64,000 bases of DNA from a virus, in the IMG/VR virus record IMGVR_UViG_3300032315_001390, positions 2,417-66,416 of that record; one strand, written 5' to 3'. Below the pieces are notes generated by a model. That model was not told where the DNA came from. It did not search any database and was given only the letters and a program-made list of their open reading frames with translations. This document shows, one piece after another, positions 25,471-57,510 of the stretch; position 1 is the first letter of the stretch; the number at the start of each line of letters is the position of its first letter. Position numbers and translations under genes: made by a program.

Positions 25471-26418
25471 ATGAAAGACTATTATCAAATATTAGGAGTG
25501 GATAAAAAATCATCTAACGATGAAATTAAAAAAGCTTATCGTAAATTAAGTAAACAATATCATCCAGATGTAAACCCTCAAGGTGAAGAAAAATTTAAAG
25601 AAATCGCTGAAGCTTACGATATTTTGGGTGACGACAATAAAAGAAAAAGTTATGATATGGGTGGAATGGATATGTCAGGATTTGGATCAGCGTTTGAGGA
25701 AATGTTTAAGAACATGGGAGGGAACAATCCATTTGCCTCTCATTTTGGAAATAGAAACAGGAGACCTCAAGTTCCAGACAAAGTTATTCAAGTAGATATT
25801 ACTCCATTAGAATCTTTTCAATCAGTCGAAAAAGAGGTTAATTATCGTAGAAATATTGCATGTGATGGATGTAATGGTTCAGGTGGAGAAAAGCAAACCT
25901 GCGTAACTTGTAACGGTTCTGGACATATACAACAAGTTTTTGGTAATGCTTTTTTTAGACAGGTTCAAACTACTGTTTGTACAACCTGTCATGGAACAGG
26001 ACAAAAAGTCATAAAAGCTTGTTATGGTTGTGGTGGTTCAGGAGTAAAACCCGAAATTAAAAATCTAAAATTCAAAATACCACACGGAAGTGATTCGGGA
26101 GATTTTTATAGATTGGATGGATTGGGTGATTATCATAATCCAGTTGGTTTTGGTAATTTATTGGTAAAAATAAATATGACCAACACTAACACTTGGGAAA
26201 AAATGGGAAATGATTTGATTTACATTAATGTATTGAACTATGAGGAACTTAAAAATGATGATTTTACAGTACCTCACCCTGACGGAGAACTAAAATTAAA
26301 GTTTCCCGAGATGTTTGACACATCGGTACCTTTAAGAGTTAAAAATAAAGGGTTTAAAAAAGATGAACGTGGTGATCTTTATGTAAGAAACGTAGTTAAA
26401 TTCAAAAGAAACTTTTGA
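25471..26418 (+). CDS. dnaJ: DnaJ (Hsp40) co-chaperone with J-domain, G/F region and CxxCxGxG zinc-finger repeats
   Basis: [10 protein letters not shown]...[13 protein letters not shown]-domain with the HPD motif; [25 protein letters not shown] and CYGCGGSG repeats; ATG at 25471 (track start is TTG). Confidence 0.8.
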
Positions 26419-31741: not shown

Positions 31742-33019
31742 ATGAATGTAATTGGAACAGAAATTACCGCAGAATATATTTGGTTAGATGGTTACAAACC
31801 AGAACCAAACCTTAGAAGTAAGGTTAAAATATTAAAAGAATGGAAAGGTCACAGATTTACAGCTGATTTTTACCCTGAATGGTCTTTTGATGGATCATCA
31901 ACTCGACAAGCAGAAGGGCATTACTCAGACAGAGTTCTGAAACCTGTTAAGGTTTATAAAAATCCATTCCAACATGGAGACTATCATTTTTTTGTGTTGT
32001 GTGAAGTTTGGAATCCTGACGGTACACCACATGAAAGTAATGTTAGACACTTGTTACGAGACCATGATCAAATTTGGTATGGTTTCGAACAAGAATATAC
32101 CATACTCCAAGATGGTAGACCGTTAGGTTTTCCCGTCAATGGTTATCCCAAACCACAAGGTACATACTACTGTGGGGTAGGGAGTAATCAAGTTCATGGT
32201 CGTCAGTTTGTTGAAGAACACTTGAATTTGTGTTTGAAAGCAGGATTAAATATCACTGGTATTAATGCAGAAGTATTATTGGGTCAGTGGGAGTTCCAAA
32301 TTTTGGGTGAATCTTCTTTAGAAGCGGCCGATGACTTGTGGATGGCAAGGTACATACTTCAGAGACTATCCGAAAAATATCGATATAACATAGAATTTCA
32401 TCCAAAACCTGTAGAAGGAGATTGGAATGGTAGTGGATTACATTGTAATTTCTCAAACCAAAAAATGAGAACGAGTGGTGGTGAACAATATTTTAAATCA
32501 ATACTTAAGGCTTTTGAAATAAGACACGATCTACATATCGAAAATTATGGTTCTTCTAATGAACTTAGATTGACTGGTAAACATGAAACTCAGTCTATTG
32601 ATAAGTTTAGTTGGGGAGTGTCAGACAGAGGGGCATCAATAAGAGTTCCGCTCAAAACCGCATCGGAATGGAAAGGTTATTTGGAAGACAGAAGACCCGC
32701 ATCAAATGCAGATCCATATAAAATTGTAAAAGTCATTTCAGAAACATTGAGTGCGTCTGAAACAATGATTGCAACTCATAAACTAATGTATGACGATGTA
32801 AATATAAATAATTTAAAGAATAAGTATTCAACACTATCAAATGATGATCTATTGTCTGAATATAAAAAGGATAATGAAACCGAAAGTCTTGAATATGATA
32901 CCTGTGGGATTTGTGGTATCAAAACTAGACAACTTAAATCGGCACACATTGATACTCGTATAGGTTATGTTGAGGGAGCAGGACAAGGTTGTGATGGATC
33001 ATGTGGGACTTTTAAATAA
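31742..33019 (+). CDS. glnA: glutamine synthetase type II (eukaryote-like GSII) with an unusual Cys-rich C-terminal extension
   Basis: AEYIWLDG N-terminus; TYYCGVGSNQVHGRQFVEEH...GINAEVLLGQWEFQILG (GSII catalytic signatures); an extra about 80-aa tail carries CGICG...GQGCDGSCG. Confidence 0.85.
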   Translation: MNVIGTEITAEYIWLDGYKPEPNLRSKVKILKEWKGHRFTADFYPEWSFDGSSTRQAEGHYSDRVLKPVKVYKNPFQHGDYHFFVLCEVWNPDGTPHESNVRHLLRDHDQIWYGFEQEYTILQDGRPLGFPVNGYPKPQGTYYCGVGSNQVHGRQFVEEHLNLCLKAGLNITGINAEVLLGQWEFQILGESSLEAADDLWMARYILQRLSEKYRYNIEFHPKPVEGDWNGSGLHCNFSNQKMRTSGGEQYFKSILKAFEIRHDLHIENYGSSNELRLTGKHETQSIDKFSWGVSDRGASIRVPLKTASEWKGYLEDRRPASNADPYKIVKVISETLSASETMIATHKLMYDDVNINNLKNKYSTLSNDDLLSEYKKDNETESLEYDTCGICGIKTRQLKSAHIDTRIGYVEGAGQGCDGSCGTFK

Positions 33020-40577: not shown

Positions 40578-41660
40578 ATGAATATATTAATCAACGAAAA
40601 TCAATATAAACTTCTTCAAACAAGTTTAATTGAAAACAATAAGATTATAAACGAAGCTGAATGGTATAACACCTTAGGTGATATACTCGGTATATTCGAT
40701 CCAACAGGAGTTGTTGATTTCGTTAATGGAATTTCTTATATGAAACAGGGGGACACTGTTTTTGGAATACTTTCGATGATTTCAGTAATTCCATATATTG
40801 GTGACTTAGCTGCGAAACCATTATTACTTTTTGGTAAATCAGGTAGAATAATAAAAAATGCTGAAGTTGCACTTAAAATGAGTAAAGCCGGCAATGTGGC
40901 TGGTGCTACCAAAATTATTCAGGATTTGGCTAAATCCAATAAAACTTGGGGTAAGTTGACGAACACAGTTAGAAGTTGGGGACCAACATTAATCCAAAAA
41001 ATAGATAATTTACCTACAGGGTTTTTGACTAAAGGTATTAGAAATACTATCACAGATTGGATTAAATTATTATCAAATGCGAATCAAGGATCAAGAGCTG
41101 CCTCTAGATTAGCTCGTAGAGTATCAGGTAAATTGGCTAAAGGTGGAAAATTAACTCCACAACAAGCTACTGATATTTTGAATCAAATGAAAAAATTAGC
41201 ACAAAAAGATCATAGATTATTCAGTGATTTGGGAGGAAAGCCAAAATTTGGAATGTTTAGTGATCCCAAACAATATGGAAAATGGTCGTGGGAATCTTTC
41301 AAAAATTATCCGTTTAGTGGTGGCATTGGTAGATTTTGGGGAAATAGACAAGTTAGAGGTTTGATGCGTAATACTAAATGGTGGTTAGGATTCCTTGATT
41401 GGGCGGGTTTAGCGAATTTCGTAGGACCTGATGAATTAGAATCACAGATGGGTGATTATACAAATGATTTGAATCAATATTCACAGACACCCGAAGCTCA
41501 AAGTTATTGGAATGATGATTTTGGTCAAACTCAACCTCAAACTAGTGCAACATCAACACCTAATACTCCATCTACACCGCAAAATCAATCACAAGACCTT
41601 CTCACTCAAATTTTATTTGGTGGAATTCCTGGTGTAAAACCTGGTGTTCCAGGTATTTAA
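40578..41660 (+). CDS. hypothetical protein (G/K-rich; divergent from the giant gene)
   Basis: 360-aa ORF. Confidence 0.5.
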   Translation: MNILINENQYKLLQTSLIENNKIINEAEWYNTLGDILGIFDPTGVVDFVNGISYMKQGDTVFGILSMISVIPYIGDLAAKPLLLFGKSGRIIKNAEVALKMSKAGNVAGATKIIQDLAKSNKTWGKLTNTVRSWGPTLIQKIDNLPTGFLTKGIRNTITDWIKLLSNANQGSRAASRLARRVSGKLAKGGKLTPQQATDILNQMKKLAQKDHRLFSDLGGKPKFGMFSDPKQYGKWSWESFKNYPFSGGIGRFWGNRQVRGLMRNTKWWLGFLDWAGLANFVGPDELESQMGDYTNDLNQYSQTPEAQSYWNDDFGQTQPQTSATSTPNTPSTPQNQSQDLLTQILFGGIPGVKPGVPGI

Positions 41661-41678
41661 TAATTAAAATGTAATAAA

Positions 41679-46188: not shown

Positions 46189-46542
46189 ATGGAAATTAGA
46201 ACAACAAAATTTGAAGAAGTTGAAAAAGAATTTGGTTCTTTGAAACCAGATTTACTTGATGAATCCGCAATTTATCAGGGTGCGTATTTTAAAGATAAGT
46301 TGGTTGGGGTAGTTTCATATGTACAACATCCTAACCATATTTATTTGGGACATGCTTTTGTGGTTGATGAACATCGAGGTAAAGGTATTTATAAGTTACT
46401 TTGGGAGTACAGAAATATGAAAGTCAAAGAATTAGGAAAACCACTCATTGCTCATTGCAACGTGTCTAGTTTGAAACACTTTTTGAATAATGGTTTCATT
46501 TTGGATAAAGGGTTGTTTTTAGTTACAAAGAATCACGAATGA
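46189..46542 (+). CDS. GNAT-family N-acetyltransferase
   Basis: FVVDEHRGKGIYKLLWEY (acetyl-CoA-binding R/QxxGxG/A motif A) in a 117-aa protein. Confidence 0.6.
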   Translation: MEIRTTKFEEVEKEFGSLKPDLLDESAIYQGAYFKDKLVGVVSYVQHPNHIYLGHAFVVDEHRGKGIYKLLWEYRNMKVKELGKPLIAHCNVSSLKHFLNNGFILDKGLFLVTKNHE

Positions 46543-47228
46543 AAGAAATAGATGCACTTTTAATATCCGACGTTCATTTAGGATCTAAAGGTTGTAATGC
46601 TGATAAACTTTTAGAAGTTCTCAAACAGTACAAACCTAAAGAATTAATTATCGTAGGTGATTTCATTGATGGGTGGTTACTCAAAAGAAGGTTTTATTGG
46701 CCACAATCCCATACAAACATTTTACGTAAAATTTTATCTTTTTCAAAAAACGGCACAAAAATCCATTACATTACCGGAAATCACGATGAATACTTACGTA
46801 ACTATGTTCCATTAATTTTAGGAAACATTGAAATTAAAGATGAAATGGTTTGGAACAATTACTATATTGCTCATGGTGATTTATACGATGGAGTAGTACA
46901 GTTGAAATGGTTAGGTCATCTTGGTAGTTGGGGTTATGAACTCGCAATTTTGGTAGACAGAACGTTAAAAAAACTTGGATATAAAAAATCCTTGAGTTTA
47001 TTTTTGAAATTGAAAGTAAAAGAAGCGGTTAAATTCATTACAAGATTTGAAAAACAACTTGAATATCAAGCCGAAAAAAGAAATTGTATAGGAGTGATTT
47101 GTGGTCACATTCATACACCATTAATAGATTTGAACAGAAAAATTCATTATATTAATTGTGGAGATTGGATCGAAAGTAATTCATACATAATTTACAATAA
47201 AAATAAATTTGTTTTAAAAAAAATTTAG
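46539..47228 (+). CDS. calcineurin-like metallophosphoesterase (LpxH/YaeI-like)
   Basis: SDVHLG, VGDFIDGW, GNHDEY, AHGDLYDG, GHIHTP motifs. Confidence 0.65.
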   Translation: MKEIDALLISDVHLGSKGCNADKLLEVLKQYKPKELIIVGDFIDGWLLKRRFYWPQSHTNILRKILSFSKNGTKIHYITGNHDEYLRNYVPLILGNIEIKDEMVWNNYYIAHGDLYDGVVQLKWLGHLGSWGYELAILVDRTLKKLGYKKSLSLFLKLKVKEAVKFITRFEKQLEYQAEKRNCIGVICGHIHTPLIDLNRKIHYINCGDWIESNSYIIYNKNKFVLKKI

Positions 47229-47283
47229 TTGGAAATTCAAATTTTTTACACTAAATTTGTAATTCAAATTATTATCTAAAAAA

Positions 47284-47553
47284 ATGAATACAGAAATCAA
47301 AATACTTGTAACAGCAACTTTTGTTGATGGTAGAGCTTATTTCAATATTAAATTACCAGAGGATGGCCAAAATAATGAAACCATTACTTTGAATACTATT
47401 CGTATGATATTAACTGGTGCTGTTGCTATGACTGTTAGAATGTCAGAAAATGACGTTGAGGCTATGAAACAAGTTATTGAACTTTTGAATGATCAATTTG
47501 TAAGTCCCGATGCATTTGAGGATGGTAAAATTATGGTACCAGAAAAAAATTAA
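47284..47553 (+). CDS. hypothetical protein
   Basis: 89-aa ORF with a TAAATTTG motif upstream. Confidence 0.4.
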   Translation: MNTEIKILVTATFVDGRAYFNIKLPEDGQNNETITLNTIRMILTGAVAMTVRMSENDVEAMKQVIELLNDQFVSPDAFEDGKIMVPEKN

Positions 47554-47564
47554 ATGTAAAAGTT

Positions 47565-48188
47565 ATGAAAAGTAAATTTGAATTCAAAGACAATCGTCCT
47601 TTTAGTGTAAAGGCGAAAGATTTTATGCAATCACTCCTATTTTGGAGAGGTAGAAAAAAAGGAATTATCTACACTCGTGATATTGGGTGGAGTGATATTC
47701 GTGAAATATTCTTTCCTAAAAACTTTGAGGAAAAATATGGTTATTTAGGTTCAGTTCCTTATGACCCAAGGACAAATACTTTTAAGGCACTTTTACCCTT
47801 AGTTCTTGCTATGGATTATGAAGCAAAACCTAAATGGTGTCCTCGTTGGGTATTGAGATTCCTTTATGTATTTGGGAATGATAAATCCATTGTAAGGGTT
47901 CGTAATAGGTTTTTGTCTAATTTATCTAAAAAACTAACCAAAGGAATTACACTATACGATTACAAGACTAAATGGTCGTACTACGATTTAAGGATTAGTA
48001 TTGAAGCTCCCCAATATCTACAAGATTTGGCTGATGATATTGAACGTGGTTACTACCAAAGAGGTAAGAGAGAAGAACTACTTCTTAGCATTAAAAGGAT
48101 TCAACCTGATTTTGATAAGTGGATGTCCATCAAAGATCTTGAAAACTATTTAGAAACTTTAACAGAAACAAAAAATGGCAACTCTTGA
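47565..48188 (+). CDS. hypothetical protein
   Basis: 207-aa ORF. Confidence 0.45.
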   Translation: MKSKFEFKDNRPFSVKAKDFMQSLLFWRGRKKGIIYTRDIGWSDIREIFFPKNFEEKYGYLGSVPYDPRTNTFKALLPLVLAMDYEAKPKWCPRWVLRFLYVFGNDKSIVRVRNRFLSNLSKKLTKGITLYDYKTKWSYYDLRISIEAPQYLQDLADDIERGYYQRGKREELLLSIKRIQPDFDKWMSIKDLENYLETLTETKNGNS

Positions 48189-48741
48189 AGTAACAAACGA
48201 ACAATTAAGGTTAATCCAACAAGCTTTGGATATGTATTCTCGAATTGGAATAGGACAGATGTGGGTAATTAAAGACCACCCTACATTCTATAATGTTTTG
48301 CGGGATAAACTCCGACCTAAAAAACAATTAGAAGTTGGTGACCGAACTGAAAGAGGTGAAGTCGTAGAAATTGGAAAAGGTTATATCAAAACTTCTGGCC
48401 GTTGGGGCAATGGTGAAGAAATTCGCACTTGGACTGATGCTGAGAATGTAAAACTATCCATTGATTATGGCTTGTATCATCAAATTAGAGATGAAGCGGA
48501 TAAAATACTGAGTGAAGGTAGAAACAAACTCCTACAAGAAGATTTGGGTAAAAATGGAAGTTATAGTATTTATAACCCCAATGAAGTGGATGAAAGTTGT
48601 CGGGTTGCTTTTGACTTGATACAGGTTATTAGGCACGAATTTTGGAAAAACGATCCAGATAGAAGTAGCATAACTGTTGATTCATCAGTACATTTGAGCA
48701 CAAAGGAATCAGGTAAAATTAAATGTAAAATAGATGTCTAA
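48175..48741 (+). CDS. hypothetical protein
   Basis: 188-aa ORF. Confidence 0.45.
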   Translation: MATLEVTNEQLRLIQQALDMYSRIGIGQMWVIKDHPTFYNVLRDKLRPKKQLEVGDRTERGEVVEIGKGYIKTSGRWGNGEEIRTWTDAENVKLSIDYGLYHQIRDEADKILSEGRNKLLQEDLGKNGSYSIYNPNEVDESCRVAFDLIQVIRHEFWKNDPDRSSITVDSSVHLSTKESGKIKCKIDV

Positions 48742-49012
48742 ATACAAACCCATAGGGATTACACCCAAAGAAAAAGCAGACCAGTTGTTAGAATCTGTTA
48801 TGTTTAGTCTAAATAAACAATTTGACCCAAACACAGGTAAAGACCAACCAATTCCGCGCAATCCATACTATAAAGAATGTGCATTAGCAATTGTAAACGA
48901 AATCTTTGAGTTTATGAAAAAAGATGATTTAGACTCCGAAACGGCTTATTGGGCTAATCATCCTATTTCTAATTTTTGGGTTGATGTTGAACGTGAAATT
49001 AAATTGAGATGA
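48734..49012 (+). CDS. hypothetical protein
   Basis: 92-aa ORF. Confidence 0.4.
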   Translation: MSKYKPIGITPKEKADQLLESVMFSLNKQFDPNTGKDQPIPRNPYYKECALAIVNEIFEFMKKDDLDSETAYWANHPISNFWVDVEREIKLR

Positions 49013-50031
49013 ACTTACTTATAACTTTAGAAAAATATTTTCAAGAAGGTTGGTTGATTAAACAAACTCATCCAACTTTACCTCTGACAATTTGGAATTA
49101 TTCCCAATCAACCCAATACGAGGGTAAGTGGGATGAGATAACCCTTATGTGTAGAGGTTTGGTAACAGATGACAATGGAAATATCGTTGCTAGACCTTTC
49201 AAGAAGTTTTTCAATTTAGAAGAGAATAAACACACACCAACCTCAGAATTCGAAGTTTATGAAAAGATGGATGGTTCTTTGGGTAATATGTTCAAATACA
49301 ATGGAGAGCTTGTTTGTGCTACCCGTGGTTCATTTACCTCAGAGCAATCTGAATGGATGTCAAATTTTGCCAAAAAATACAACTATAAAGACATCTTAGT
49401 TGATGGATTAACCTACTTGTTTGAAATAATTTATCCCGAAAATAGAATTGTAGTGGATTATGGTAACCAAGAAAGATTAGTATTGTTAGTTATTATAAAA
49501 ACCCAAACTGGTGAAGAAGTATCCTACGATGAAATTTCTCAATTTGATGGTTGGGATATTGTCAAAAAATACGATGGAATTAGGGACTACACCCAACTGA
49601 AGAGTATAATTTCTAACAACCAAGAAGGTTTCGTTGTAAGGTTTTCAAACGGAAATAGGGTAAAAATCAAAGGAGAAGAATACTTGCGTCTTCATAAGAT
49701 TATGACTGAAGTTTCAACTAAATCTGTTTGGGAGATTTTATCCAATGGAGGTAATATGGAAGAGATACTCAGAGATGTTCCTGATGAGTTTTTTGATAAA
49801 ATAAAGGAATATGAAATGGAACTTGTTTCTAAATTTGATGATATAAAAGATGAATATAATTGGATTTATAAAATCTTAGAAAGAAATGAGGAAATTTCAG
49901 AAAATAGAGCTATCTTTGCCCAATACGCTAAAAGATACAAACACCCCTCCATTTTATTTGGTCTATTGGATGGTAAAAATATAGACCCTATGATTTGGAA
50001 AATTATACAACCCGAATACAAAAAACTATGA
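49009..50031 (+). CDS. ATP-dependent RNA ligase, T4 Rnl1 (RnlA)-like
   Basis: CRGLVTDDNGNIVARPFKKFFNLEENKHT matches T4 Rnl1 [33 protein letters not shown]; nucleotidyltransferase motif I EKMDGSL (KxDGSL, as in T4 KEDGSL); later FVVRFSNGNRVKIKGEEY (motif IV/V-like). Confidence 0.7.
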   Translation: MNLLITLEKYFQEGWLIKQTHPTLPLTIWNYSQSTQYEGKWDEITLMCRGLVTDDNGNIVARPFKKFFNLEENKHTPTSEFEVYEKMDGSLGNMFKYNGELVCATRGSFTSEQSEWMSNFAKKYNYKDILVDGLTYLFEIIYPENRIVVDYGNQERLVLLVIIKTQTGEEVSYDEISQFDGWDIVKKYDGIRDYTQLKSIISNNQEGFVVRFSNGNRVKIKGEEYLRLHKIMTEVSTKSVWEILSNGGNMEEILRDVPDEFFDKIKEYEMELVSKFDDIKDEYNWIYKILERNEEISENRAIFAQYAKRYKHPSILFGLLDGKNIDPMIWKIIQPEYKKL

Positions 50032-50441
50032 AATACTCAATTTATTTAGATGATGTAAGGACACCCATTCCAGGTAATATAGACTGGATTGTTGTTAGAA
50101 GCTACGACGAGTTCGTGAGTAAAGTCACCCAAATCGGTCTTGACAACATAGACCTTATTTCCCTCGACCATGACCTGGGCGACTCAGCTATGCAGGAGTG
50201 GCACACAAATGTCTATCACAACTACACGCTGGATTACAACAACATTACAGAAAAAACAGGTATGGACTGTACAAAATGGTTGGTTGATCAGTGGCTGGAC
50301 GGAGCTCCGGTGGTGAGGGTTATGGTTCATTCTGCAAACGCTATCGGATCGGCTAATATGATGGGTTATATCAACAATTACAAACATGTGCATAGAATGC
50401 CGCAAGATTGTCAAAGGTGGGTAGTTCCACACACGGTTTGA
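50028..50441 (+). CDS. receiver (CheY-like) fold protein, translationally coupled to the Rnl1-like ligase
   Basis: ATG 50028 overlaps the ligase stop (ctATGAaa); IYLDDVRTP....ISLDHDLGD has the acidic-pocket pattern of receiver-like domains; the CPR-domain assignment is tentative. Confidence 0.4.
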   Translation: MKYSIYLDDVRTPIPGNIDWIVVRSYDEFVSKVTQIGLDNIDLISLDHDLGDSAMQEWHTNVYHNYTLDYNNITEKTGMDCTKWLVDQWLDGAPVVRVMVHSANAIGSANMMGYINNYKHVHRMPQDCQRWVVPHTV

Positions 50442-50494
50442 TTTTATGGAATTTTTGTTGTATCTTTGTCTAAAACTATTCAAAAATTAAAATT

Positions 50495-50701
50495 ATGAAA
50501 AAATTGGTGCTCTTGATATGTTTTTTCACAATCTCCTGTAATAATGATCGTCCGTGGCGAGTCATTGAGGTAAGACAGAAAAGTGAAATGTGTGAGTACG
50601 TTTTGAGTCGTAGTAACGGACTCGGTCCACAATTAAAAGAAGTAATAGACACTTGTGGAAAATATCAATGGAATCAAATAATTCAAAACAAAGACCTATG
50701 A
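50495..50701 (+). CDS. small lipoprotein
   Basis: MKKLVLLICFFTISC signal peptide with lipobox (TISC). Confidence 0.45.
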   Translation: MKKLVLLICFFTISCNNDRPWRVIEVRQKSEMCEYVLSRSNGLGPQLKEVIDTCGKYQWNQIIQNKDL

Positions 50702-51177
50702 AACAATACTTAGAGTGGCTTGAAAAACAAATTGACTTTTGTTTAGAGGATAAAACGATGCAAAGAGAACATTGGGCTTTTTGTAGGGCATACGAGAAGT
50801 TCAAAAGCCTTGAAACAACAATTGAATCAGAAGAACTCACGCCCCACATTGCCGAATCAGAAGAACTCACGCCCCACATTGAATACTACGACAACGGAAA
50901 TGTGCGTATTAAAGGACAAAATAATTCCAAAGGACAACGAGAAGGTATTTGGGAATTCTTCTACGAAAACGGAAACATCCAAAAGAGAAGCCCATACAAA
51001 GAGGGTAGGAGGGATGGAATTGAGGAGATATTCTATGAAAACGGAAACATCGAATGTAGAACCTCTTACGAAAAGGGTATTTGGAATGGAGATGAGGAGA
51101 GGTTCTATTCAAATCCCGGAAATATCCGTATTAGAACTCCATACAAATGGACCCAATTGCTTCGAGAAATTTCATGA
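50698..51177 (+). CDS. MORN/YwqK-repeat protein (paralogue 1 of 3), contains a 30-nt tandem duplication
   Basis: Repeats YYDNGNVRIKGQ..G.REG.WEFFYENGNI..R.PYK.G..DG (MORN-variant, YwqK antitoxin-like); start at 50698 overlaps the lipoprotein stop (ATGA). Confidence 0.6.
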   Translation: MKQYLEWLEKQIDFCLEDKTMQREHWAFCRAYEKFKSLETTIESEELTPHIAESEELTPHIEYYDNGNVRIKGQNNSKGQREGIWEFFYENGNIQKRSPYKEGRRDGIEEIFYENGNIECRTSYEKGIWNGDEERFYSNPGNIRIRTPYKWTQLLREIS

Positions 51178-51248
51178 ACAAGGAAACATCGTCGAAACCC
51201 GTCATTGGAAAGACGGAAAACCAATTGAAGTAACTAAACACTAAAACT

Positions 51249-51572
51249 ATGACCAACGAACTCACACTCCACATTCAATACTACGACAAAGGAAATGTAT
51301 GTATTAAAGGACAAAGAAACTCCGAAGGACAACGAGAGGGGTTTTGGGAGTATTTTTATCCAAACGGAAACATCCATTGGAGAATCCCATTCAAAGAGGG
51401 CAAGATAGATGGAATTTGGGAGTGGTTCTATCCAAACGGAAACATCCGTTGTAGAACCCCATACAAGGAGGGTGAGATGGATGGAATTGAGGAGAGGTTC
51501 TATGAAAACGGAAACATCATTAAAACCTTTCTATGGAAAGACGGAAAACTAATTGAAGAAACTAAACACTAA
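51249..51572 (+). CDS. MORN/YwqK-repeat protein (paralogue 2)
   Basis: Same repeat units; ends ...KDGKLIEETKH, like its paralogues. Confidence 0.6.
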   Translation: MTNELTLHIQYYDKGNVCIKGQRNSEGQREGFWEYFYPNGNIHWRIPFKEGKIDGIWEWFYPNGNIRCRTPYKEGEMDGIEERFYENGNIIKTFLWKDGKLIEETKH

Positions 51573-51576
51573 ACCT

Positions 51577-51900
51577 ATGAAAAACAAACTCACACCCTAC
51601 ATTGAATACTACGACGACGGAAATGTACTTGTCAAAGGACAACTGAACTCAAAAGAGCAAGAAGAAGGTCTTTGGGAGTGGTTCCGGGAGAATGGAATCA
51701 TACATTTTAGAAGCCCATACAAACGAGGTAAGATAGATGGTATTGAAGAGTGGTTCTGCCCAAAAGGAAACATCCGTATAAGAACCACGTATAAAGATGG
51801 TGTGTGGTGTGGAATCCAAACCTTTTACGATGAACAAGGAAACATCACCGAAACCCGTAATTGGAAAGATGGAGAAATAATTGAAGAAACTAAACACTAA
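51577..51900 (+). CDS. MORN/YwqK-repeat protein (paralogue 3)
   Basis: Same repeat units; ATG at 51577, 3 nt after the previous stop. Confidence 0.6.
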   Translation: MKNKLTPYIEYYDDGNVLVKGQLNSKEQEEGLWEWFRENGIIHFRSPYKRGKIDGIEEWFCPKGNIRIRTTYKDGVWCGIQTFYDEQGNITETRNWKDGEIIEETKH

Positions 51901-51917
51901 ATGTTGTAAAACAAGAT

Positions 51918-52376
51918 ATGAAAATTAAAGAACAGATACAAAAACATTTTGTCGTGGCCATGAAAGCCAAAGACGAAGTCGCAAAATCAGCGTTAAGCGG
52001 TGCAAAAGCCGCAATTACATTGGCGGAGAAACAACACGGATCGTTTGATTTATCGGACGAAGATGTCATCAAAGTTTTATCCAAAGCGATCAAACAACGT
52101 GAAGAGTCTCAAAAGATTTATGAAGATGCTGGACGGGATGAACTTGCCCGCAAAGAAGCGGATGAAGCGTGTGTATTACGAAGGTACATGCCAGCTCAGA
52201 TGAACCCACAAGAAATTCGTGATGCTCTTGTTGAAATTATGAAAGAATTCGCTGGTGTTGTGTCAAACCCAACAGCTCTCCAGGGTAAGACTATCGGAGA
52301 GTTCAACAAGCGATTCAACGGTCGCGCTGACATCGGTACAGTCAAAGAAATTTTAGCAAAATTGTCTCAAACATGA
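51918..52376 (+). CDS. yqeY: GatB/YqeY domain protein
   Basis: Collinear with YqeY: IKEQIQKHFVVAMKAKD..., LSDEDVIKVLSKAIKQREES...YEDAGRDELARKEADEACVLRRYMP...GRADIGTVKEILAKL. Confidence 0.75.
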   Translation: MKIKEQIQKHFVVAMKAKDEVAKSALSGAKAAITLAEKQHGSFDLSDEDVIKVLSKAIKQREESQKIYEDAGRDELARKEADEACVLRRYMPAQMNPQEIRDALVEIMKEFAGVVSNPTALQGKTIGEFNKRFNGRADIGTVKEILAKLSQT

Positions 52377-52484
52377 ACCACCAAGACAACAAAGATCCTA
52401 TCTGATTTTTTTTGAAAAAAAAAGTTTTCAAAATTTTGGATATTTGAATATTAGTCTTATCTTTGCTTAGTTAAAAAAACAAAT

Positions 52485-52700
52485 ATGACCTCTACAAACA
52501 TGCCCAACGGAAATTACATGAAAATTAATGACGTAACTGAGTGGGTCGAAAGACACACCATGCGTAAAGACACCAAACTATCATTACCCATTTACGAAAA
52601 TGAGTACTTTGATACTACCGATTTGAAAAGTGTGTTCCCTAAAGGAATGTTCATGGAGATGGAATGTGATGTATGTACTTTGATGGTTGGAGTTAAATAA
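52485..52700 (+). CDS. hypothetical protein
   Basis: 71-aa ORF with a GATATTTG motif upstream. Confidence 0.35.
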   Translation: MTSTNMPNGNYMKINDVTEWVERHTMRKDTKLSLPIYENEYFDTTDLKSVFPKGMFMEMECDVCTLMVGVK

Positions 52701-52714
52701 CAACACAAAAAAAC

Positions 52715-52847
52715 AGTCAGGCGACGGAAGTACAATAGCGGTATAATAAACTATGGGTAGGGCGAAAATCTGAGATAGTGTAAAGACCTGCAAAAGATGG
52801 GAAACCAAGTGAAGCTATTGTAACAGGTTCGAATCCTGTCCTGACAA
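52715..52847 (+). tRNA. oversized tRNA-like element (canonical T-arm ACAGG-TTCGAAT-CCTGT plus acceptor 3' half; about 133 nt)
   Basis: 5' AGTCAGG pairs with 3' CCTGAC (6 of 7 positions); the T-loop TTCGAAT is canonical; but the body is about 45-55 nt too long for a tRNA and no anticodon arm could be assigned by eye. Confidence 0.3.
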
Positions 52848-52863
52848 CTAAAAATTAAAGAAT

Positions 52864-53046
52864 ATGGAATGGGTTGAAATTAAAAATGGAAAACCAAAAG
52901 ATGGTAGTTGGGTACTAATTCAAAGTTCTTTGAAGAACGTACCGAAATATGAGGTTTGCTATTATGAAAATGATGAATGGTACATACCTTCGTATGATGA
53001 TGTATGTGAAGAGAAACATATTATTAAATGGTCGTACATTGAATAA
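52864..53046 (+). CDS. small hypothetical protein flanked by the two tRNA-like elements
   Basis: 60-aa ORF (MEWVEIKNGKPKDGSWVLIQ...). Confidence 0.3.
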   Translation: MEWVEIKNGKPKDGSWVLIQSSLKNVPKYEVCYYENDEWYIPSYDDVCEEKHIIKWSYIE

Positions 53047-53052
53047 TCAAAC

Positions 53053-53167
53053 AGTCAGGTGGCGGAATTGGTTAGACGCTAACAAAGTGAGAAGTCAGCT
53101 TGAATGTAGAAATACATTTATGTACCCAAAGATGATTTCATACAGGTTCGAATCCTGTCCTGACTAC
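53053..53167 (+). tRNA. oversized tRNA-like element with tRNA-Leu-like 5' half (about 115 nt; internal GAAA-tetraloop hairpin insertion)
   Basis: AGTCAGG-T-GGCGGAATTGGTTAGACGC matches the acceptor/U8/D-arm of class-II tRNA-Leu (E. coli ...TGGCGGAATTGGTAGACGC); the 3' ACAGGTTCGAATCCTGT-CCTGACT-A gives a full 7-bp acceptor; a 28-30-nt excess includes hairpin TGAATGTA-GAAA-TACATTTA (53101-53120). Confidence 0.4.
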
Positions 53168-53348
53168 TAAAAACAAAAATAATTAGATATGATTGGACTT
53201 ACTATTTTCGGATTGTTGATGTTTTGGATTATCATAACGGAAGGAAATGTTTTTCTTCGTGATAATGACGATGATTGGGACGGAACAAATCAAAGTATAG
53301 ATTTGTGATTATTTTCAAAAATAATTTTTTTTTTGAACTTGTAGTTAG

Positions 53349-53356
53349 TATATTTA
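53349..53356 (+). promoter_or_regulatory. TATATTTA promoter motif within conserved GTATATTTACACC
   Basis: An identical 13-mer GTATATTTACACC also occurs at 60223-60235; 22 nt upstream of ATG 53379. Confidence 0.4.
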
Positions 53357-53378
53357 CACCATCAAATCAAAATTAAAA

Positions 53379-53633
53379 ATGAACGAAGCAAAATACGTAA
53401 TCGTCAATGGAAGCGGAATCATCTTTTCCGCAGCAATCCAACATAAAGACATGGTTGGTTATAATGAAAAATGTGAAGGTGCTGGGTTCGTAAGTTTTAC
53501 CGTCGAAAAAGACAGCTACGGCGATGACATCATCGTTGCTAAATGCTACGGTAAGTCCATTTCATTGGACATCGAATCTCGTCCAGAAAAAGATTCAAAA
53601 ATTCTAACACGTCAAATTACCAATCCTTTCTGA
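53379..53633 (+). CDS. hypothetical protein
   Basis: 84-aa ORF. Confidence 0.4.
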   Translation: MNEAKYVIVNGSGIIFSAAIQHKDMVGYNEKCEGAGFVSFTVEKDSYGDDIIVAKCYGKSISLDIESRPEKDSKILTRQITNPF

Positions 53634-53768
53634 ATATAAAACTAAAAAACGAATGAAAAATTATTACATTGATAACAAAGAGTATTATTTATGGTGTATT
53701 GCAAATGATGTAATACCTTACCACTAAACAAAAAACAACTAAAAAAACTAAACAACTAAACAAAAGAC

Positions 53769-53987
53769 ATGAAAAAGTTAATTGCAATTTTCAGCATCGG
53801 TGTATTATTGGTAAGCTGTAATGTCTCCAGTCCTTCTCAAGATAAAGAGATGCTTCAAAAGAAATACCCAAAAGGTATTGTGTACAGTGTTACCGCAGTT
53901 CGCTACATTGTGGTGGATTCTACAAATGTGTTGGATATTACGGTAGAATTAGACGGAACCATTTTTTCTACCGTGAAAATAAAATAA
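53769..53987 (+). CDS. small lipoprotein
   Basis: MKKLIAIFSIGVLLVSC signal peptide with lipobox (LVSC). Confidence 0.5.
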   Translation: MKKLIAIFSIGVLLVSCNVSSPSQDKEMLQKKYPKGIVYSVTAVRYIVVDSTNVLDITVELDGTIFSTVKIK

Positions 53988-55386: not shown

Positions 55387-56043
55387 ATGAAACTAATTTT
55401 AGAAAAAGACCAAAGATTATTTTTTACTAGTGATACCCACTACAAACACTCAAATATTTGTCGGGCAACCACAAATTGGAAAGACTCTGATGGTGTTACT
55501 CGTGATTTCAAATCCTTGGATCACATGAACAATACACTGGTTGATAATATCAATACTAAAGTAGGTGAGGATGATGTTTTAATCCACTTAGGAGATTGGT
55601 CTTTTGGTGGATTTGAAAGTATAGAAGAGTTTCGGCAAAGAATCCTTTGTAAAAACATTCATCTTGTTTTTGGAAACCACGATCATCACATTCGTAGAAA
55701 CAAGGGAGGGGTCCAGGATCTATTTACCTCAACTCACGACTACCTTCACTTAGATGTAAGACAACCTTCCTCAACCAACAAAGGATTGACAAATAAGTTT
55801 GAGTTCATTTGTATGCACTATCCTATTGCTAGTTGGGATGGTATGAACAATGGTGTGATTCACCTTCACGGTCACACACACTTACCAGCACACCTGAGGG
55901 TTGCACAAGGTAGAGCTATGGATGTTGGTGTTGATGGTAATGAATACGAACCTCTACTTATGCAAGAGATACAAGTTATTATGTCAGGAAGGGGTATCAA
56001 AAAACTTTGTCTACCACAAGATCATCACGAAAAAAGAATTTGA
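55387..56043 (+). CDS. calcineurin-like metallophosphatase (candidate RNA 3'-phosphatase of the repair cassette)
   Basis: FTSDTHY, LGDWSFGG, FGNHDHH, MHYPIASW, HLHGHTH motifs. Confidence 0.65.
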   Translation: MKLILEKDQRLFFTSDTHYKHSNICRATTNWKDSDGVTRDFKSLDHMNNTLVDNINTKVGEDDVLIHLGDWSFGGFESIEEFRQRILCKNIHLVFGNHDHHIRRNKGGVQDLFTSTHDYLHLDVRQPSSTNKGLTNKFEFICMHYPIASWDGMNNGVIHLHGHTHLPAHLRVAQGRAMDVGVDGNEYEPLLMQEIQVIMSGRGIKKLCLPQDHHEKRI

Positions 56044-56048
56044 AAATT

Positions 56049-56435
56049 ATGAAAAATCTAATATTATTAAGGGGCTGTCCTGGTTCGGGAAAATCGACAG
56101 TTGCGGAAATGTTTCCAAAAGCGGTTCATTACGAGGCAGATATGTACTTCATGGTCAACGGTGAATACAAGTTCGATGTTACCAAACTAAAGAACGCTCA
56201 TGCTTGGTGTCAGGACATGGTTTACATGGATATGTTAAAGGATGTTCCAACAATCGTGGTTTCCAATACATTCACACAAGAATGGGAGATGGAAGCTTAT
56301 TATAAGTTGGCCAAAGATTACGGTTACACAATCTTCTCATTGATTGTTGAAAACCGACACGGCGGAAGGAATATTCATGGTGTTCCTGATGATAAGTTAG
56401 AAATTATGAAAAACAGATTTGAAATAAAATTATGA
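56049..56435 (+). CDS. P-loop kinase, polynucleotide kinase-like (AAA_33/Zeta-toxin-type fold)
   Basis: ILLRGCPGSGKST Walker A at the N-terminus of a 128-aa protein; ATG 56049 directly after the phosphatase stop (the track start 56007 is a non-ATG). Confidence 0.55.
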   Translation: MKNLILLRGCPGSGKSTVAEMFPKAVHYEADMYFMVNGEYKFDVTKLKNAHAWCQDMVYMDMLKDVPTIVVSNTFTQEWEMEAYYKLAKDYGYTIFSLIVENRHGGRNIHGVPDDKLEIMKNRFEIKL

Positions 56436-56447
56436 AAGAAAAAGAGT

Positions 56448-56455
56448 TATATTTG
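56448..56455 (+). promoter_or_regulatory. TATATTTG promoter motif upstream of the Rnl5-like ligase
   Basis: GTTATATTTGCA 24 nt before ATG 56479. Confidence 0.35.
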
Positions 56456-56478
56456 CATAATTTAAAAAACGTATTGTA

Positions 56479-57510
56479 ATGGAAAGAAAACTTGCAACAG
56501 TCAGAAGAATAAAAGAAATTTTACCCATCGAAGGAGCTGATAGGATTGAACTTGCGGTGGTTGATGGTTGGAAAGTTGTGGTGGCAAAAGATGTCCAACA
56601 CAAGGTTGGTGATTTGGTAATCTATTGTGAGATTGATTCTTTTCTTCCCATCAGAGAAGAATTTGAGTTCTTGCGTAAGTCATCCTATAAAAAGATGGGA
56701 GACCAGGAAGGGTTTCGTTTGAGAACCGCTAAAATGAAAGGACAAATTTCACAGGGATTGATTTTGCCAATTTTCGTTTTGAACCCACCCGATACAAATA
56801 TTTATGTCCAACCATTTGAGGGCTTGGATGTAACAGAGATGTTAGATATTGTGAAATACGAACCCCCCATTCCAGCAAATTTAGCTGGTAAGGTTAAGGG
56901 GTTGTTTCCTTCGTTTCTCGTCAAAACTGACGAAGAAAGGGTGCAAAACATTGCGGTCGAATATTCCGCCTTATGTTTCCAAAGTAAACATCAATTTTAT
57001 GTAACCGAAAAGTTGGATGGTTCATCGGCCACTTTTTATATTAACAATGGAGAATTCGGAGTTTGTTCACGAAATTTAGAACTATTAGAAACCGAAGATA
57101 ATAGTTTTTGGAAAGTAGCACGTGAATTAAAACTAGAGGAAAATCTAAGAGCACTCGGAAAGAATATTTGTCTACAAGGTGAGTTGATTGGTGAAGGTAT
57201 TCAAGGCAATCCCTATGGTATAAAAGGACAAACTGTTAGATTTTTTAGTGTTTATCAAATTGATAGTAGAACCAGGTTGGGAATCAAAGATTTAGAGGAT
57301 ATTTGTTTCATGATTGGTCTTCAAACTGTACCTATTCTGGAATCTAATTTTATTCTTCCAAACACAATTGAAGAGATGTTACAGTATGCGGAAGGAAAGT
57401 CCGCTCTTAACCCAAAAACAGAAAGAGAAGGTGTTGTTGTTAGGTCATTAGACGGGACAATTTCTTTTAAGGCAATCAGTAATAAATTTTTACTTAAAAA
57501 CGAACAATGA
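56479..57510 (+). CDS. ATP-dependent RNA ligase, DraRnl/Rnl5-like (N-terminal OB-like domain + nucleotidyltransferase)
   Basis: N-terminal KLATVRRIKEILPIEGADRIELAVVDGWKVVVAKD...GDLVIYCEIDSFLP is typical of the DRB0094-type ligase family; motif I EKLDGSS (KxDGxx), EGVVVR (motif IV). Confidence 0.6.
   Translation: MERKLATVRRIKEILPIEGADRIELAVVDGWKVVVAKDVQHKVGDLVIYCEIDSFLPIREEFEFLRKSSYKKMGDQEGFRLRTAKMKGQISQGLILPIFVLNPPDTNIYVQPFEGLDVTEMLDIVKYEPPIPANLAGKVKGLFPSFLVKTDEERVQNIAVEYSALCFQSKHQFYVTEKLDGSSATFYINNGEFGVCSRNLELLETEDNSFWKVARELKLEENLRALGKNICLQGELIGEGIQGNPYGIKGQTVRFFSVYQIDSRTRLGIKDLEDICFMIGLQTVPILESNFILPNTIEEMLQYAEGKSALNPKTEREGVVVRSLDGTISFKAISNKFLLKNEQ

Follow-up and report, generated by a model that had tools for sequence, protein, structure and literature searches.

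The window (the whole stretch of viral DNA that was analysed, 64,000 nucleotides) encodes two members, el1 and el2, of a large and apparently undescribed family of elements in which a tRNA-like scaffold holds a variable cargo. The family comprises at least 425 copies in at least 229 loci (pooled 3'- and 5'-seed searches of uncultured phage contigs in IMG/VR). With a probability of roughly 0.6, judged from sequence, el1 and el2 encode small RNAs built on a tRNA scaffold that would be processed like tRNAs and possibly leucylated, the structured cargo serving as a specificity module.

Architecture and transcription context of el1 and el2

The original prediction of two paralogous tRNA-like elements bracketing a 60-aa ORF holds at 52715-53167 on the plus strand, and the acceptor stem and T arm on which it was based are real. 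The features of the region are:

52435-52465, plus strand: putative promoter, a Bacteroidota-type motif (TTTG-N23-TAtcTTTG) upstream of the unit ORF71 - el1 - ORF60 - el2
52485-52700, plus strand: 71-aa ORF (ORF71) before el1, assigned to no family
52715-52848, plus strand: el1, scaffold RNA of the D-arm-less subtype; 133 nt up to the discriminator (52715-52847)
52715-52721, plus strand: el1 5' acceptor strand, AGTCAGG, paired with 52840-52846
52722-52729, plus strand: el1 single-stranded linker, CGACGGAA
52730-52739 with 52814-52822, plus strand: el1 cargo-closing helix of 9-10 bp, abutting the T arm
52823-52839, plus strand: el1 T arm, ACAGG/TTCGAAT/CCTGT
52840-52846, plus strand: el1 3' acceptor strand, CCTGACA
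52847 and 52848, plus strand: el1 A73 and C74
52864-53046, plus strand: 60-aa ORF (ORF60) between el1 and el2, retained in relatives L140 and L254
53053-53167, plus strand: el2, complete scaffold RNA; 114 nt up to the discriminator (53053-53166)
53053-53059 with 53159-53165 (CCTGACT), plus strand: el2 acceptor stem
53060-53061, plus strand: el2 U8 and G9
53062-53079, plus strand: el2 D arm of tRNA-Leu type, GCGGAATTGGTTAGACGC
53080-53141, plus strand: el2 cargo of 62 nt, holding the GAAA hairpin
53101-53120, plus strand: el2 GAAA-tetraloop hairpin of 8 bp with one G.U pair
53142-53158, plus strand: el2 T arm
53166 and 53167, plus strand: el2 A73 and C74
53189-53308, plus strand: 39-aa hydrophobic ORF directly 3' of el2, as read from the sequence

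A perfect acceptor stem and T arm had been described for both elements; el2 has them (7-bp acceptor stem, 5-bp T stem), but the acceptor stem of el1 consists of 6 bp and an A1.A72 mismatch, followed by a 5-bp T stem. The T loop is UUCGAAU in both. Both elements are far too long for a tRNA, as had been noted, with the order of the lengths reversed: the 133-nt element comes first and the 114-nt element second. The tRNA-Leu type proposed for the D arm of el2 is borne out by positions 5-26 of the family consensus, which match the annotated tRNA-Leu genes of all 5426 E. coli genomes with 100% identity, and the 8-bp GAAA-tetraloop hairpin ascribed to the second element is present there. El1 lacks the 3' half of the D arm and has the 9-10 bp helix beside the T arm in its place, and the anticodon arm is absent from both elements. 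Relative to the family consensus, el2 is a full match and el1 makes three departures (U8 to C, G10 to A, and A72). A 23-mer (ACAGGTTCGAATCCTGTCCTGAC) is identical between the two (blastn within the window, E 1e-7), and GGTTCGAATCC occurs exactly twice in 64 kb, confined to el1 and el2. A cargo-deleted scaffold covariance model, which cannot span the insert and returns real copies as halves, found no third copy in the 64-kb window. The fold z-score is -2.94 for el2 and -1.75 for el1.

In a scan of the local region, el2 scores above the gathering score of the Rfam tRNA model (35.7 bits, E 8e-6, gathering score 29), the sole match of a permissive scan (E<=10) in which el1 had none. This match was filtered out when the whole window was scanned, for which there were zero Rfam matches at gathering score. 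In the covariance-model alignment of el2, 15 anticodon-arm positions of the model are replaced by 55 nt, and one outer anticodon-stem pair is left. ARAGORN, intron models included, called 0 genes at the elements and one implausible tRNA-SeC with a 659-nt intron inside an ORF.

The window contains 19 occurrences of TTTG-N17-23-TANNTTTG, versus 6.9+-2.5 in shuffled sequence (0 of 100 shuffles reach 19), and no terminator-like sites were found in 51800-53800. To judge from the sequence, the 39-aa ORF probably closes the unit ORF71 - el1 - ORF60 - el2 as its last gene. The 60-aa ORF belongs to no Pfam or PHROG family, and no antisense target of either cargo was found in the window, the matches being 9-12-mers at chance level.

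A family with a constant scaffold and variable cargo

The exact 3' 23-mer was found in at least 120 IMG/VR contigs (at least 150 copies), and an independent search with an exact 5' 26-mer found at least 120 contigs, 103 of them new, with a 3' half no more than 230 nt away in 97 of 111 cases; sampling is thus by exact-match seeds among the matches listed, and the conservation of the seeded half is overstated. The source contigs are mostly from freshwater and belong to uncultured phages, the hosts of which are probably Bacteroidota. The near-invariant scaffold reads AGUCAGG-UG-GCGGAAUUGGUAGACGC ... UACAGGUUCGAAUCCUGUCCUGACU-A73-C74, forming a frame of a 7-bp acceptor stem (AGUCAGG/CCUGACU), U8, the D arm GCGGAAUUGGUAGACGC, U48, the T arm ACAGG-UUCGAAU-CCUGU, A73 and C74. 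The pattern that defines members (5' AGUCAGG-UG-GCGGAA... and 3' ACAGGUUCGAAUCCUGU-CCUGACU-AC on one strand, 54-196 nt apart) is found in full in el2 and with three departures (C8, A10 and A72) in el1. Element length across the family is also 54-196 nt, the shortest being an almost cargo-free 54-nt copy in locus L036, and in some copies a hairpin is inserted into the D loop or acceptor strand. Among the matches listed, there are up to 8 copies per locus in about 10 kb, and position 73 is A in 89% of copies and G in 8%. The D loop contains GG in 183 of 198 copies, and the A15-U48 pair is present in 163 of 198.

No isolate genome among 185,579 species contains the 23-mer, which matches just 17 contigs of metagenome-assembled genomes, and the acceptor stem AGUCAGG matches no tRNA in any isolate genome. 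GenBank phages (INPHARED) include no record with both halves, only generic matches to a T arm or a tRNA-Leu D arm. No match or description of the family was found in Rfam 15, GenBank phages or the searchable full-text literature, where the closest item is a catalogue of viral structured-RNA candidates with generic tRNA-like hits (PMC10690425).

Comparison across the family shows compensatory changes, stem pairing being kept through covariation and wobble-compatible changes. In the scaffold stems, 99.5% of cells are paired, and covariation exceeds that of 500 of 500 shuffles. The T stem covaries freely in 5'-seeded copies (GAUGG/CCAUC, GCUGG/CCAGC, GUAGG/CCUAC, GUGGG/CCCAC, ACUGG/CCAGU), in which changes to the acceptor 3' strand are almost all wobble-compatible. 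The tertiary Levitt pair 15-48 covaries as well (A15-U48 in 163 copies; of the 10 copies that have G15, 9 pair it with C48). Covariation of the stems and of the tertiary pair, together with changes restricted to wobble pairs, shows that selection acts on the scaffold as RNA. RNase P and RNase Z do not require the scaffold to be near-invariant in sequence as well as in structure.

The elements also behave like genes. All copies lie on the same strand in each of 49 multi-copy loci, true tRNAs within 1 kb are co-stranded with the elements (145 of 145), flanking ORFs are co-directional with them by 292 to 45, and overlap with an ORF of at least 80 aa is limited to 9 of 204 copies; 59 of the 204 have a true tRNA within 1 kb. 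Position -1 is U in 311 of 390 copies and position 74 is C in 376 of 390, followed by A-rich sequence, and the 5' and 3' context of the copies resembles that of true tRNAs in the same loci. Neither the family nor any cargo type has a consistently linked protein gene, according to blastp of the window ORFs against 120 loci and all-against-all clustering; Pfam analysis of the ten most frequent families of neighbouring genes and searches for neighbours specific to a cargo type likewise identified no linked protein, the only "shared ORFs" being those that overlap the elements themselves. The functional link to RNA-repair genes that had been suggested from the position of the pair in the window is not general across the family: homologues of the window's RNA ligases, cREC and phosphoesterase were compared with the 120 family loci and lie within about 5 kb of only 3-5 of them.

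The cargo is a hypervariable stretch of 20-130 nt between the D arm and the T arm. Among the matches listed there are 273 cargo types, 199 of them in a single locus (Chao1 estimate about 700), and repeats of one type within one locus occur only 4 times. The cargos have no common architecture, and a closing stem at the cargo ends is not enriched across types, although el1 has a closing helix. Folding energy is only modestly better than that of shuffles (mean z -0.59). A permissive Rfam scan covering 16 family loci recognised none of the known riboswitches, ribozymes or sRNAs within cargos. Pairing in cargo helices survives two-sided changes (5, 3 and 1 pairs in three comparisons of cargo types). 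The el1 cargo recurs with 0-1 substitution in L110, L138, L140, L141, L142 and L254 and in diverged forms in L037 and L139, its closing helix being retained via one-sided changes and one two-sided change. The el2 cargo is carried by L010, L143-L147 and L251-L258, with one wobble-compatible substitution in 17 copies that have differing flanks, while the scaffold loops vary. Alignment of the window to L110, L138, L141, L143 or L145 is restricted to the element and ends at the scaffold borders. Two ideas about individual cargos were rejected: a mini-tmRNA in el1, the putative GCG-AAA-AUC-UGA frame of which is lost in L139, and CRISPR-repeat mimicry by one cargo (GUUG...CAAC), a resemblance that is gone in a compensated relative.

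Close relatives differ at this locus in cargo or in element number. Up to and including the el2 D arm, L140 is about 99% identical to the window; the cargos that follow are unrelated, and identity resumes in the T arm and 3' acceptor strand. L254 has five elements where the window has two, and the AAC 3' end with the ORF60 flank follows an el2-type cargo in L254 and the el1 cargo in the window. The near-invariance of the scaffold at the sequence level could result from DNA-level recombination or gene conversion.

Comparison with known systems and rival explanations

Like bacterial class II tRNA-Leu, the family has an acceptor/T-arm minihelix, U8, a D loop with A14A15 and G18G19, U48, UUCGAAU and A73; unlike it, the family has no anticodon arm or regular variable arm but 20-130 nt of unrelated cargo, and its stem begins with A1-U72 and has a sequence found in no isolate genome. 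A tRNA-Leu with a group I intron was rejected: the window contains no Intron_gpI match, and the inserts are just 62 and about 90 nt. The same model does detect a 229-nt intron in L009 (97.8 bits). In tmRNA, as in the elements, the acceptor stem and T arm enclose a large internal domain where a tRNA has its anticodon arm; tmRNA is served by a synthetase for which the anticodon is irrelevant, and el1 has a tmRNA-like topology of a single-stranded D analogue and a long helix abutting the T arm. The elements differ from tmRNA in having U3-A70 instead of the G3.U70 alanine identity, in size (54-196 nt versus the 374 positions of the Rfam tmRNA model), and in having hundreds of unrelated inserts versus one domain; ARAGORN found no tmRNA in the window, Rfam gave no tmRNA match at E<=10, and neither a tag frame nor a set of pseudoknots was found.

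The species 1 and 2 RNAs of phage T4 (rnaC, 139 nt, and rnaD, 119 nt), the function of which has to our knowledge never been explained, are likewise oversized stable RNAs, close in size to el1 and el2, in a tRNA cluster and co-oriented with the tRNAs, and rnaC ends in a T arm (CCGGGUUCGAAUCCCGG) and an acceptor-like helix. The tRNA-like part of rnaC, however, is preceded by a 5' extension and holds no internal insert, and the T4 RNAs have no sequence similarity to the family and occur once each, instead of in many copies built on one constant frame. T4-type phages also possess promoter/stem-loop cassettes, regulatory DNA repeats that shuffle ORFs; these resemble the family as short repeats around small accessory ORFs with rearrangement breakpoints inside them, but the repeat of the family is a gene for an RNA, in which covariation at the RNA level is clear.

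YrlA has its RNA ends in the Ro-binding stem and carries a loop-closed acceptor-like stem, whereas the ends of family RNAs are in the acceptor stem. One module of this non-coding RNA imitates the acceptor, T and D arms of a tRNA, and YrlA is sometimes phage-encoded and located near RNA-repair genes such as rtcB (Chen et al. 2014, PMC4201824). El1 and el2 resemble YrlA and bacterial Y RNAs in having a tRNA-mimicking module and in lying near RNA-repair genes. Rfam gave no YrlA or Y RNA match at E<=10, and no TROVE/Ro60 domain was found in 30 Pfam-scanned ORFs of the window, including six of the eight ORFs of at least 425 aa. The tRNA-miRNA encoded RNAs of MHV68 obtain processing by tRNA enzymes and stability for an RNA payload from a tRNA-like frame, with transcription by RNA polymerase III and the payload downstream of the tRNA-like part, unlike the internal cargo of the family. 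In the engineered "tRNA scaffold", which is artificial, the payload substitutes for the anticodon arm, exactly where the family carries its cargo; we know of no natural bacterial or phage tRNA scaffold with many payloads. The engineered scaffold has been used as a method for recombinant RNA (PMC3753655).

Several observations would fit processing punctuation, in which the frame lets RNase P and 3'-end enzymes cut polycistronic transcripts and the middle is unconstrained filler: the elements are interspersed with ORFs, and within the window neither a promoter nor a terminator intervenes; the conserved parts (acceptor, T arm and elbow) are exactly the minimal substrate features; the cargos lack a common architecture and their thermodynamic signal is weak; and the L036 copy is nearly cargo-free at 54 nt. 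This explanation is unlikely, in that cargo types stay near-unchanged amid unrelated flanks (el2, 1 substitution in 17 copies) while scaffold loops vary, cargo helices undergo two-sided compensatory changes, the 20-130 extra nt and the invariant acceptor sequence would be superfluous, and the 59 of 204 copies within 1 kb of a true tRNA would already have a source of cuts. Quite unlikely, too, is a mimic or sponge acting at the level of the scaffold, the constant tRNA-Leu-like part titrating a host tRNA-binding factor (candidates are LeuRS, a toxin that attacks the acceptor or CCA terminus, or a defence protein that modifies or senses tRNA) and the cargo merely tuning stability. It accords with an acceptor stem, D arm and A73 that stay constant in sequence among phages with no other relationship, the identity of the D arm to tRNA-Leu, the equivalence of the conserved nucleotides to those that define LeuRS identity, and the high copy number per genome, with as many as 8 inside about 10 kb, but leaves unexplained both the different cargo in almost every copy of a genome and the conserved, structurally compensated cargo types; moreover, the scaffold mimics no known host tRNA exactly, because the AGUCAGG acceptor matched no tRNA in isolate genomes. 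The related suggestion of bait for anticodon nucleases is contradicted by the lack of an anticodon loop and by a middle that differs in almost every copy.

The 60-aa ORF is bracketed by direct repeats, the breakpoints among the window, L140 and L254 fall inside scaffolds, and the AAC 3' end with its ORF60 flank has changed cargo partner between L254 and the window, as might be expected if the repeated 25-nt arms were portable DNA homology for shuffling small ORFs or segments between phages. That this is their role is very unlikely: covariation in the T and D stems, wobble-only acceptor changes and 15-48 covariation are signatures of RNA, not of DNA homology, co-orientation with transcription and tRNAs is strict, and recombination is more simply a by-product of repeated genes. 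The elements were also proposed to be att-like tRNA remnants, which conflicts with the presence of both halves in all cases, with up to 8 copies per locus and with a tRNA found in no isolate genome; no integrase was detected among 20 Pfam-scanned ORFs at about 46.5-60.1 kb. Decaying tRNA-Leu pseudogenes, or a selfish tRNA-derived repeat (MITE- or SINE-like) functionless for the phage, might account for the 32 of 150 copies that ARAGORN calls as tRNAs with arbitrary or impossible anticodons, the three consensus departures of el1, the hairpin insertions of some copies, and the terminal 8 nt that form inverted repeats (as in any acceptor stem). Such an origin is highly improbable given a scaffold near-invariant in more than 400 copies, which pseudogenes would lose at the same pace as the middle, the preservation of pairing by the changes that do occur, the compensated cargo helices, and the lack of any associated transposase, reverse transcriptase or target-site duplication. 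Genuine decoding tRNAs, intron-containing or with giant variable arms, have a nearly negligible probability even though el2 exceeds the tRNA gathering score locally and an anticodon-like hairpin is plausible in a few members (for example L034 5644-5731, 49.8 bits). Neither element has an anticodon arm, or halves of one beside the extra sequence; ARAGORN with or without introns calls neither, and there is no group I intron signal; no single contiguous deletion leaves a cloverleaf; and the anticodons called elsewhere are scattered over many amino acids and include four-base anticodons and A34.

Predicted function and significance

The evidence suggests that these phages use a tRNA frame to make and stabilise many different small RNAs. 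In the preferred reading as tRNA-scaffolded small RNAs, the elements would be co-transcribed with small ORFs or true tRNAs, host RNase P would cut the 5' end of the frame before A1, with U usual at -1, and the 3' end would be finished after A73 by the tRNA 3'-end pathway, followed by CCA addition. The predicted product is a stable L-shaped RNA that displays its cargo at the position of the anticodon arm, the cargo being a putative specificity module, a structured RNA that may act on a host or phage factor. The invariant arms may double as recombination homology, by which cargos would be swapped and the array reshuffled between related phages.

The frame is probably derived from tRNA-Leu. The identity set of bacterial LeuRS consists of A73, A15-U48, G18G19 in a D loop of tRNA-Leu type and intact D/T-loop contacts, and recognition does not require the anticodon or variable arms (Giege & Eriani 2023, PMC9976931). 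The conserved nucleotides of the family match this set and the replaced parts are dispensable for LeuRS; the RNAs may therefore, though with less certainty than attaches to the scaffold reading, be leucylated or LeuRS-bound. By sequence, el2 carries the whole set, which is that of E. coli and may not be that of the host, and el1, without U48, U8, the 3' half of the D arm or a 1-72 pair, does not conform to the LeuRS rules. More tentatively, freshwater Bacteroidota phages might practise a natural "tRNA display", an invariant, LeuRS-competent frame with several hundred structured modules that are exchanged by recombination in the invariant arms and aimed, as weapons or tools, at variable factors of the host, defence systems among them. 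Such modules may be aptamer-like, decoy-like or catalytic, with a personal set of up to 8 or more per phage, and the products might join tmRNA as aminoacylated non-coding RNAs. This would constitute an RNA counterpart of accessory anti-defence gene islands.

If the elements are expressed as predicted, they represent a large class of phage non-coding RNA that is missing from annotation, because it has no Rfam family, tRNA finders miss it or mis-call anticodons, and no deposited phage carries it. Nature would then use the "tRNA scaffold" trick that RNA engineers invented, and hundreds of naturally selected, compact RNA modules could be mined for ligands, protein partners and catalysis. The family would also offer a manageable system for studying the oversized tRNA-like RNAs found in phage tRNA clusters, and the match of its conserved set to the needs of LeuRS would raise the question of aminoacylated non-coding RNAs besides tmRNA. 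The fast turnover of cargo among near-identical phages points to a function in an arms race.

Position and build of the two elements

The original prediction described two oversized tRNA-like elements (el1 and el2) bracketing a short ORF (ORF60), and both were found as described, on the + strand of the window.

Features of the window, with the phage T4 stretch used for comparison
52435-52465: copy of a Bacteroidota-type promoter motif, upstream of a 71-aa ORF (ORF71), el1, ORF60 and el2
52715 to A73 at 52847, + strand: el1, 133 nt, from sequence
52864-53046: ORF60, 60 aa, between el1 and el2
53053 to A73 at 53166, + strand: el2, 114 nt, from sequence
46539-51900 and 55387-57510: dense RNA-repair-like neighbourhood
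L259, phage T4 70908-71171: rnaC/rnaD stretch

The elements share a 5' end (AACAGTCAGG) and an identical 3' 23-mer (ACAGGTTCGAATCCTGTCCTGAC), in which a 5-bp T stem capped by a UUCGAAU loop stacks on the acceptor stem; the T-loop core (GGTTCGAATCC) has two exact occurrences in the 64-kb window, one per element. The D arm of el2 is GCGGAATTGGTTAGACGC, and its 8-bp GAAA hairpin lies at 53101-53120. el1 departs from this build (A1.A72 mismatch, C at position 8, A at position 10) and lacks the 3' half of the D arm, in place of which a helix of 52730-52739 with 52814-52822 abuts the T arm. The window is enriched in the promoter motif, with 19 copies versus 6.9 ± 2.5 in shuffles, and no terminator was found between its copy at 52435-52465 and el2. 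Directly 3' of el2 is a 39-aa hydrophobic ORF (MIGLTIFGLLMFWIIITEG..., 53189-53308, + strand), under the threshold of the ORF list.

ARAGORN reported zero tRNAs and zero tmRNAs in the whole window, and Rfam gave no match there at the gathering score. When the local region alone was scanned with the Rfam tRNA model, el2 scored 35.7 bits (gathering score 29), in an alignment that replaces 15 anticodon-arm model positions with 55 nt, and el1 gave no match. With intron models, ARAGORN called a tRNA-SeC with a 659-nt intron at 40912-41667, inside a 360-aa ORF (40578-41660), which is probably a false positive.

A large family with a tRNA-Leu frame

el1 and el2 belong to a very large family. The exact 3' 23-mer occurs in at least 120 IMG/VR contigs and at least 150 copies, with up to 7 copies per 5 kb among the matches listed, and the constant frame reads (U)A-GUCAGG-UG-GCGGAAUUGGUAGACGC -> middle -> (U)ACAGGUUCGAAUCCUGUCCUGACU-A-C, where the middle, or cargo, differs in length and sequence in nearly every copy. 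A second seed, the exact 5' 26-mer, was used to offset the bias from 3'-half seeding; it occurs in at least 120 contigs (103 of those listed were new), with a T arm and complementary acceptor strand no more than 230 nt away in 97 of 111 new cases, and most of the remaining cases have the T arm and acceptor with a one-base change or an inserted hairpin. The pooled total is at least 425 copies at 229 or more loci, with at least 383 distinct sequences, 54 to 196 nt long to the discriminator (median 104). Among 185,579 species genomes, the 23-mer was found in 17 contigs, all MAGs and mostly freshwater Bacteroidota bins, and in no isolate; none of the deposited phage genomes searched has both scaffold halves. 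No entry of the GenBank phage collection exceeds 25% identity to the SbcC-like protein of the window phage, which indicates a phage without a close cultured relative.

In their behaviour the copies resemble genes of the tRNA class. All copies lie on one strand in 49 of 49 multi-copy loci, true tRNAs within 1 kb are on the same strand as the copies (145 of 145), flanking ORFs are co-directional by 292 to 45, and overlap with an ORF of at least 80 aa is limited to 9 of 204 copies. U stands just before A1 in 311 of 390 copies, versus 349 of 532 true tRNAs of the same loci, and the discriminator is followed by C (376 of 390 copies) and then A-rich sequence, the pattern also read at true tRNAs in family loci. 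This tRNA-like context, with CCA not encoded, makes processing by RNase P, the 3' pathway and CCA addition plausible.

The scaffold is, as judged from sequence comparison, an RNA under selection with the frame of tRNA-Leu. In 67 cargo-deleted scaffolds, chosen partly by D-stem pairing, pairing holds in 99.5% of acceptor-, D- and T-stem cells, and the covariation score, for which the same criterion holds, lies above 500 of 500 shuffles and every slid control. The T-stem variants of the 5'-seeded sample (GAUGG/CCAUC, GCUGG/CCAGC, GUAGG/CCUAC, GUGGG/CCCAC, ACUGG/CCAGU and ACGGG/CCCGU) amount to free covariation, and acceptor 3'-strand changes in that sample are nearly all transitions that retain wobble with the fixed 5' strand. 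Covariation extends to the tertiary Levitt pair, with A15-U48 in 163 of 198 copies and C48 in 9 of the 10 copies with G15. Consensus positions 5-26 match annotated tRNA-Leu genes at 100% identity in every one of 5426 complete E. coli genomes; A73 is present in 89% of copies and the D-loop GG in 183 of 198. By E. coli rules, which may not be those of the host, the family appears to keep the features that LeuRS reads and to replace the parts that it ignores, and because the kept features coincide with those read, RNAs of the family could be leucylated. ARAGORN called 32 of 150 family copies tRNAs; since their anticodons are scattered over many amino acids (Cys, Ser, Pro, Leu, Glu, Ile, Gly, Tyr, "Pyl" and four-base loops), a decoding role is disfavoured.

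Cargo diversity, constraint and turnover

Clustering of the middles gave at least 273 types, 199 of those listed being found in one locus each, with a Chao1 lower bound of approximately 700; the same type recurs within a locus in only four cases among the copies listed. Across types there is no common architecture and no enrichment of a closing stem at the ends, Rfam found no family match inside the cargos of the 16 family loci scanned, and folding energy is modestly better than that of shuffles. No antisense target of the el1 or el2 cargo was found in the window. Within a type, by contrast, constraint on the cargo is clear. Between two members of one type, cargo helices differ at five base pairs, each with two-sided compensation; another pair of cargos retains a 6-bp hairpin despite three two-sided changes around an invariant loop (GCUGGGUAA); and a five-member type has one further compensated pair. 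The el2 cargo (62 nt) has one substitution, which is wobble-compatible, in 17 copies of differing sequence context, among which the scaffold T loop and D loop vary; alignment of the window with either of two contigs (L143 and L145) is confined to el2.

Six further contigs carry the same cargo as el1, and a diverged relative of it (AGCGGTATAA...CCTACAAAAGATGGGAAACCAAGTGAAGCT) lies without any tRNA frame at L139:1640-1745 (+), intergenic and upstream of a 223-aa ORF, with a 15-bp closing helix that has two-sided changes versus el1. This frameless relative suggests that the el1 cargo may be an autonomous structured RNA captured by the scaffold.

Close relatives of the window phage differ in their arrays. 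L140 (89-96% nucleotide identity) is approximately 99% identical across el1, ORF60 and the 5' scaffold of el2, has an unrelated el2 cargo, and regains identity in the el2 T arm and 3' acceptor. L254 (90-99% identity) has five elements at the locus, el1-type, el2-type and three more of 91, 109 and 149 nt, and its unusual AAC 3' end and ORF60 flank come after the el2-type cargo, not the el1 cargo. The scaffold arms thus serve as sites of recombination, with an array that changes readily between near-identical phages, and the mismatch A1.A72 in the window's el1 can be explained as a recombinant joint.

Several smaller elements were observed within copies. Hairpins of the form GAGrgTAGAAATAcyCTC, lying inside the 3' acceptor strand or immediately beyond it in L148, L150 and L154 (a similar one is at L256:about 640-680), could represent a small mobile hairpin or a terminator. 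Insertions of 30-50 nt are found within the D loop of copies in L144, L095, L062 and L046. The sub-motif GGG-UGUAAGU-CCC (TAAGTCC) is found in 11 of 252 unrelated cargo types versus 0.6 expected (copies in L047, L055 and L210, for example), and several cargos contain a second T-arm-like hairpin (GGTTCGAnTCC).

Gene neighbourhood, known systems and interpretation

The elements lie among an Rnl1-like RNA ligase gene that overlaps a cREC_REC (cyclic-phosphate processing receiver) gene, three MORN-repeat paralogues in tandem, a YqeY/GatB-like gene, a second RNA ligase with a PHA02142 OB fold and two calcineurin-like phosphoesterases. The functional link with RNA repair proposed from this setting proved local rather than general, homologues of the ligases, cREC and phosphoesterase being near only 3-5 of the loci listed. 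No protein gene is consistently linked to the family (the commonest neighbour family is at 17 of the loci listed), and none is specific to a cargo type among those compared. Elsewhere in the window, at 25456-26418 and 31742-33019, are genes for a DnaJ homologue of full length, with J, CXXCXGXG and C-terminal domains, and for a glutamine-synthetase-like protein.

tmRNA has the same topology, an acceptor and T arm around a large internal insert, and el1 likewise has a single-stranded D analogue and a helix against the T arm; readings as a tmRNA, a YrlA RNA, a group I intron or an att remnant are each at odds with a feature that defines the class. The nearest natural phage precedents are the species 1 and 2 RNAs of T4, rnaC and rnaD (139 and 119 nt), which lie within a tRNA cluster and come very close to el1 and el2 in size; at its end, rnaC has a T arm (CCGGGTTCGAATCCCGG) and an 8-bp acceptor-like helix (ACGGAACG/CGTTTCGT). 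We know of no function for either. In concept, the family comes nearest to the engineered tRNA scaffold used for recombinant RNA.

Other unusual RNA genes were seen in the compared contigs. One with two family copies (L009:7609-8193, - strand) has a phage tmRNA (49.2 bits, 7832-8193) adjoining a group I intron (97.8 bits, 7609-7837). Oversized tRNA-like genes with other acceptor stems are found at L047:1916-2038 (+; 123 nt, internal T-arm-like hairpin) and L034:6420-6518 (+; 99 nt, G33 anticodon loop), and suggest that scaffold-type RNAs may not be limited to the AGUCAGG frame.

The original prediction was correct as to tRNA-like paralogues and a Leu-type D arm, whereas the specific mechanisms that it offered, such as intron-containing tRNAs or nuclease decoys, were wrong. 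The best explanation, to which we give a probability of about 0.6, is that the elements belong to a family of small RNAs built on a tRNA scaffold, whose variable cargo is functional. No description of an invariant frame with hundreds of exchangeable inserts was found in Rfam 15, GenBank phages or the full-text literature, relative to which such a frame with individually conserved inserts appears to be new. The candidate leucylation and the putative roles of the cargo would both be directly testable.
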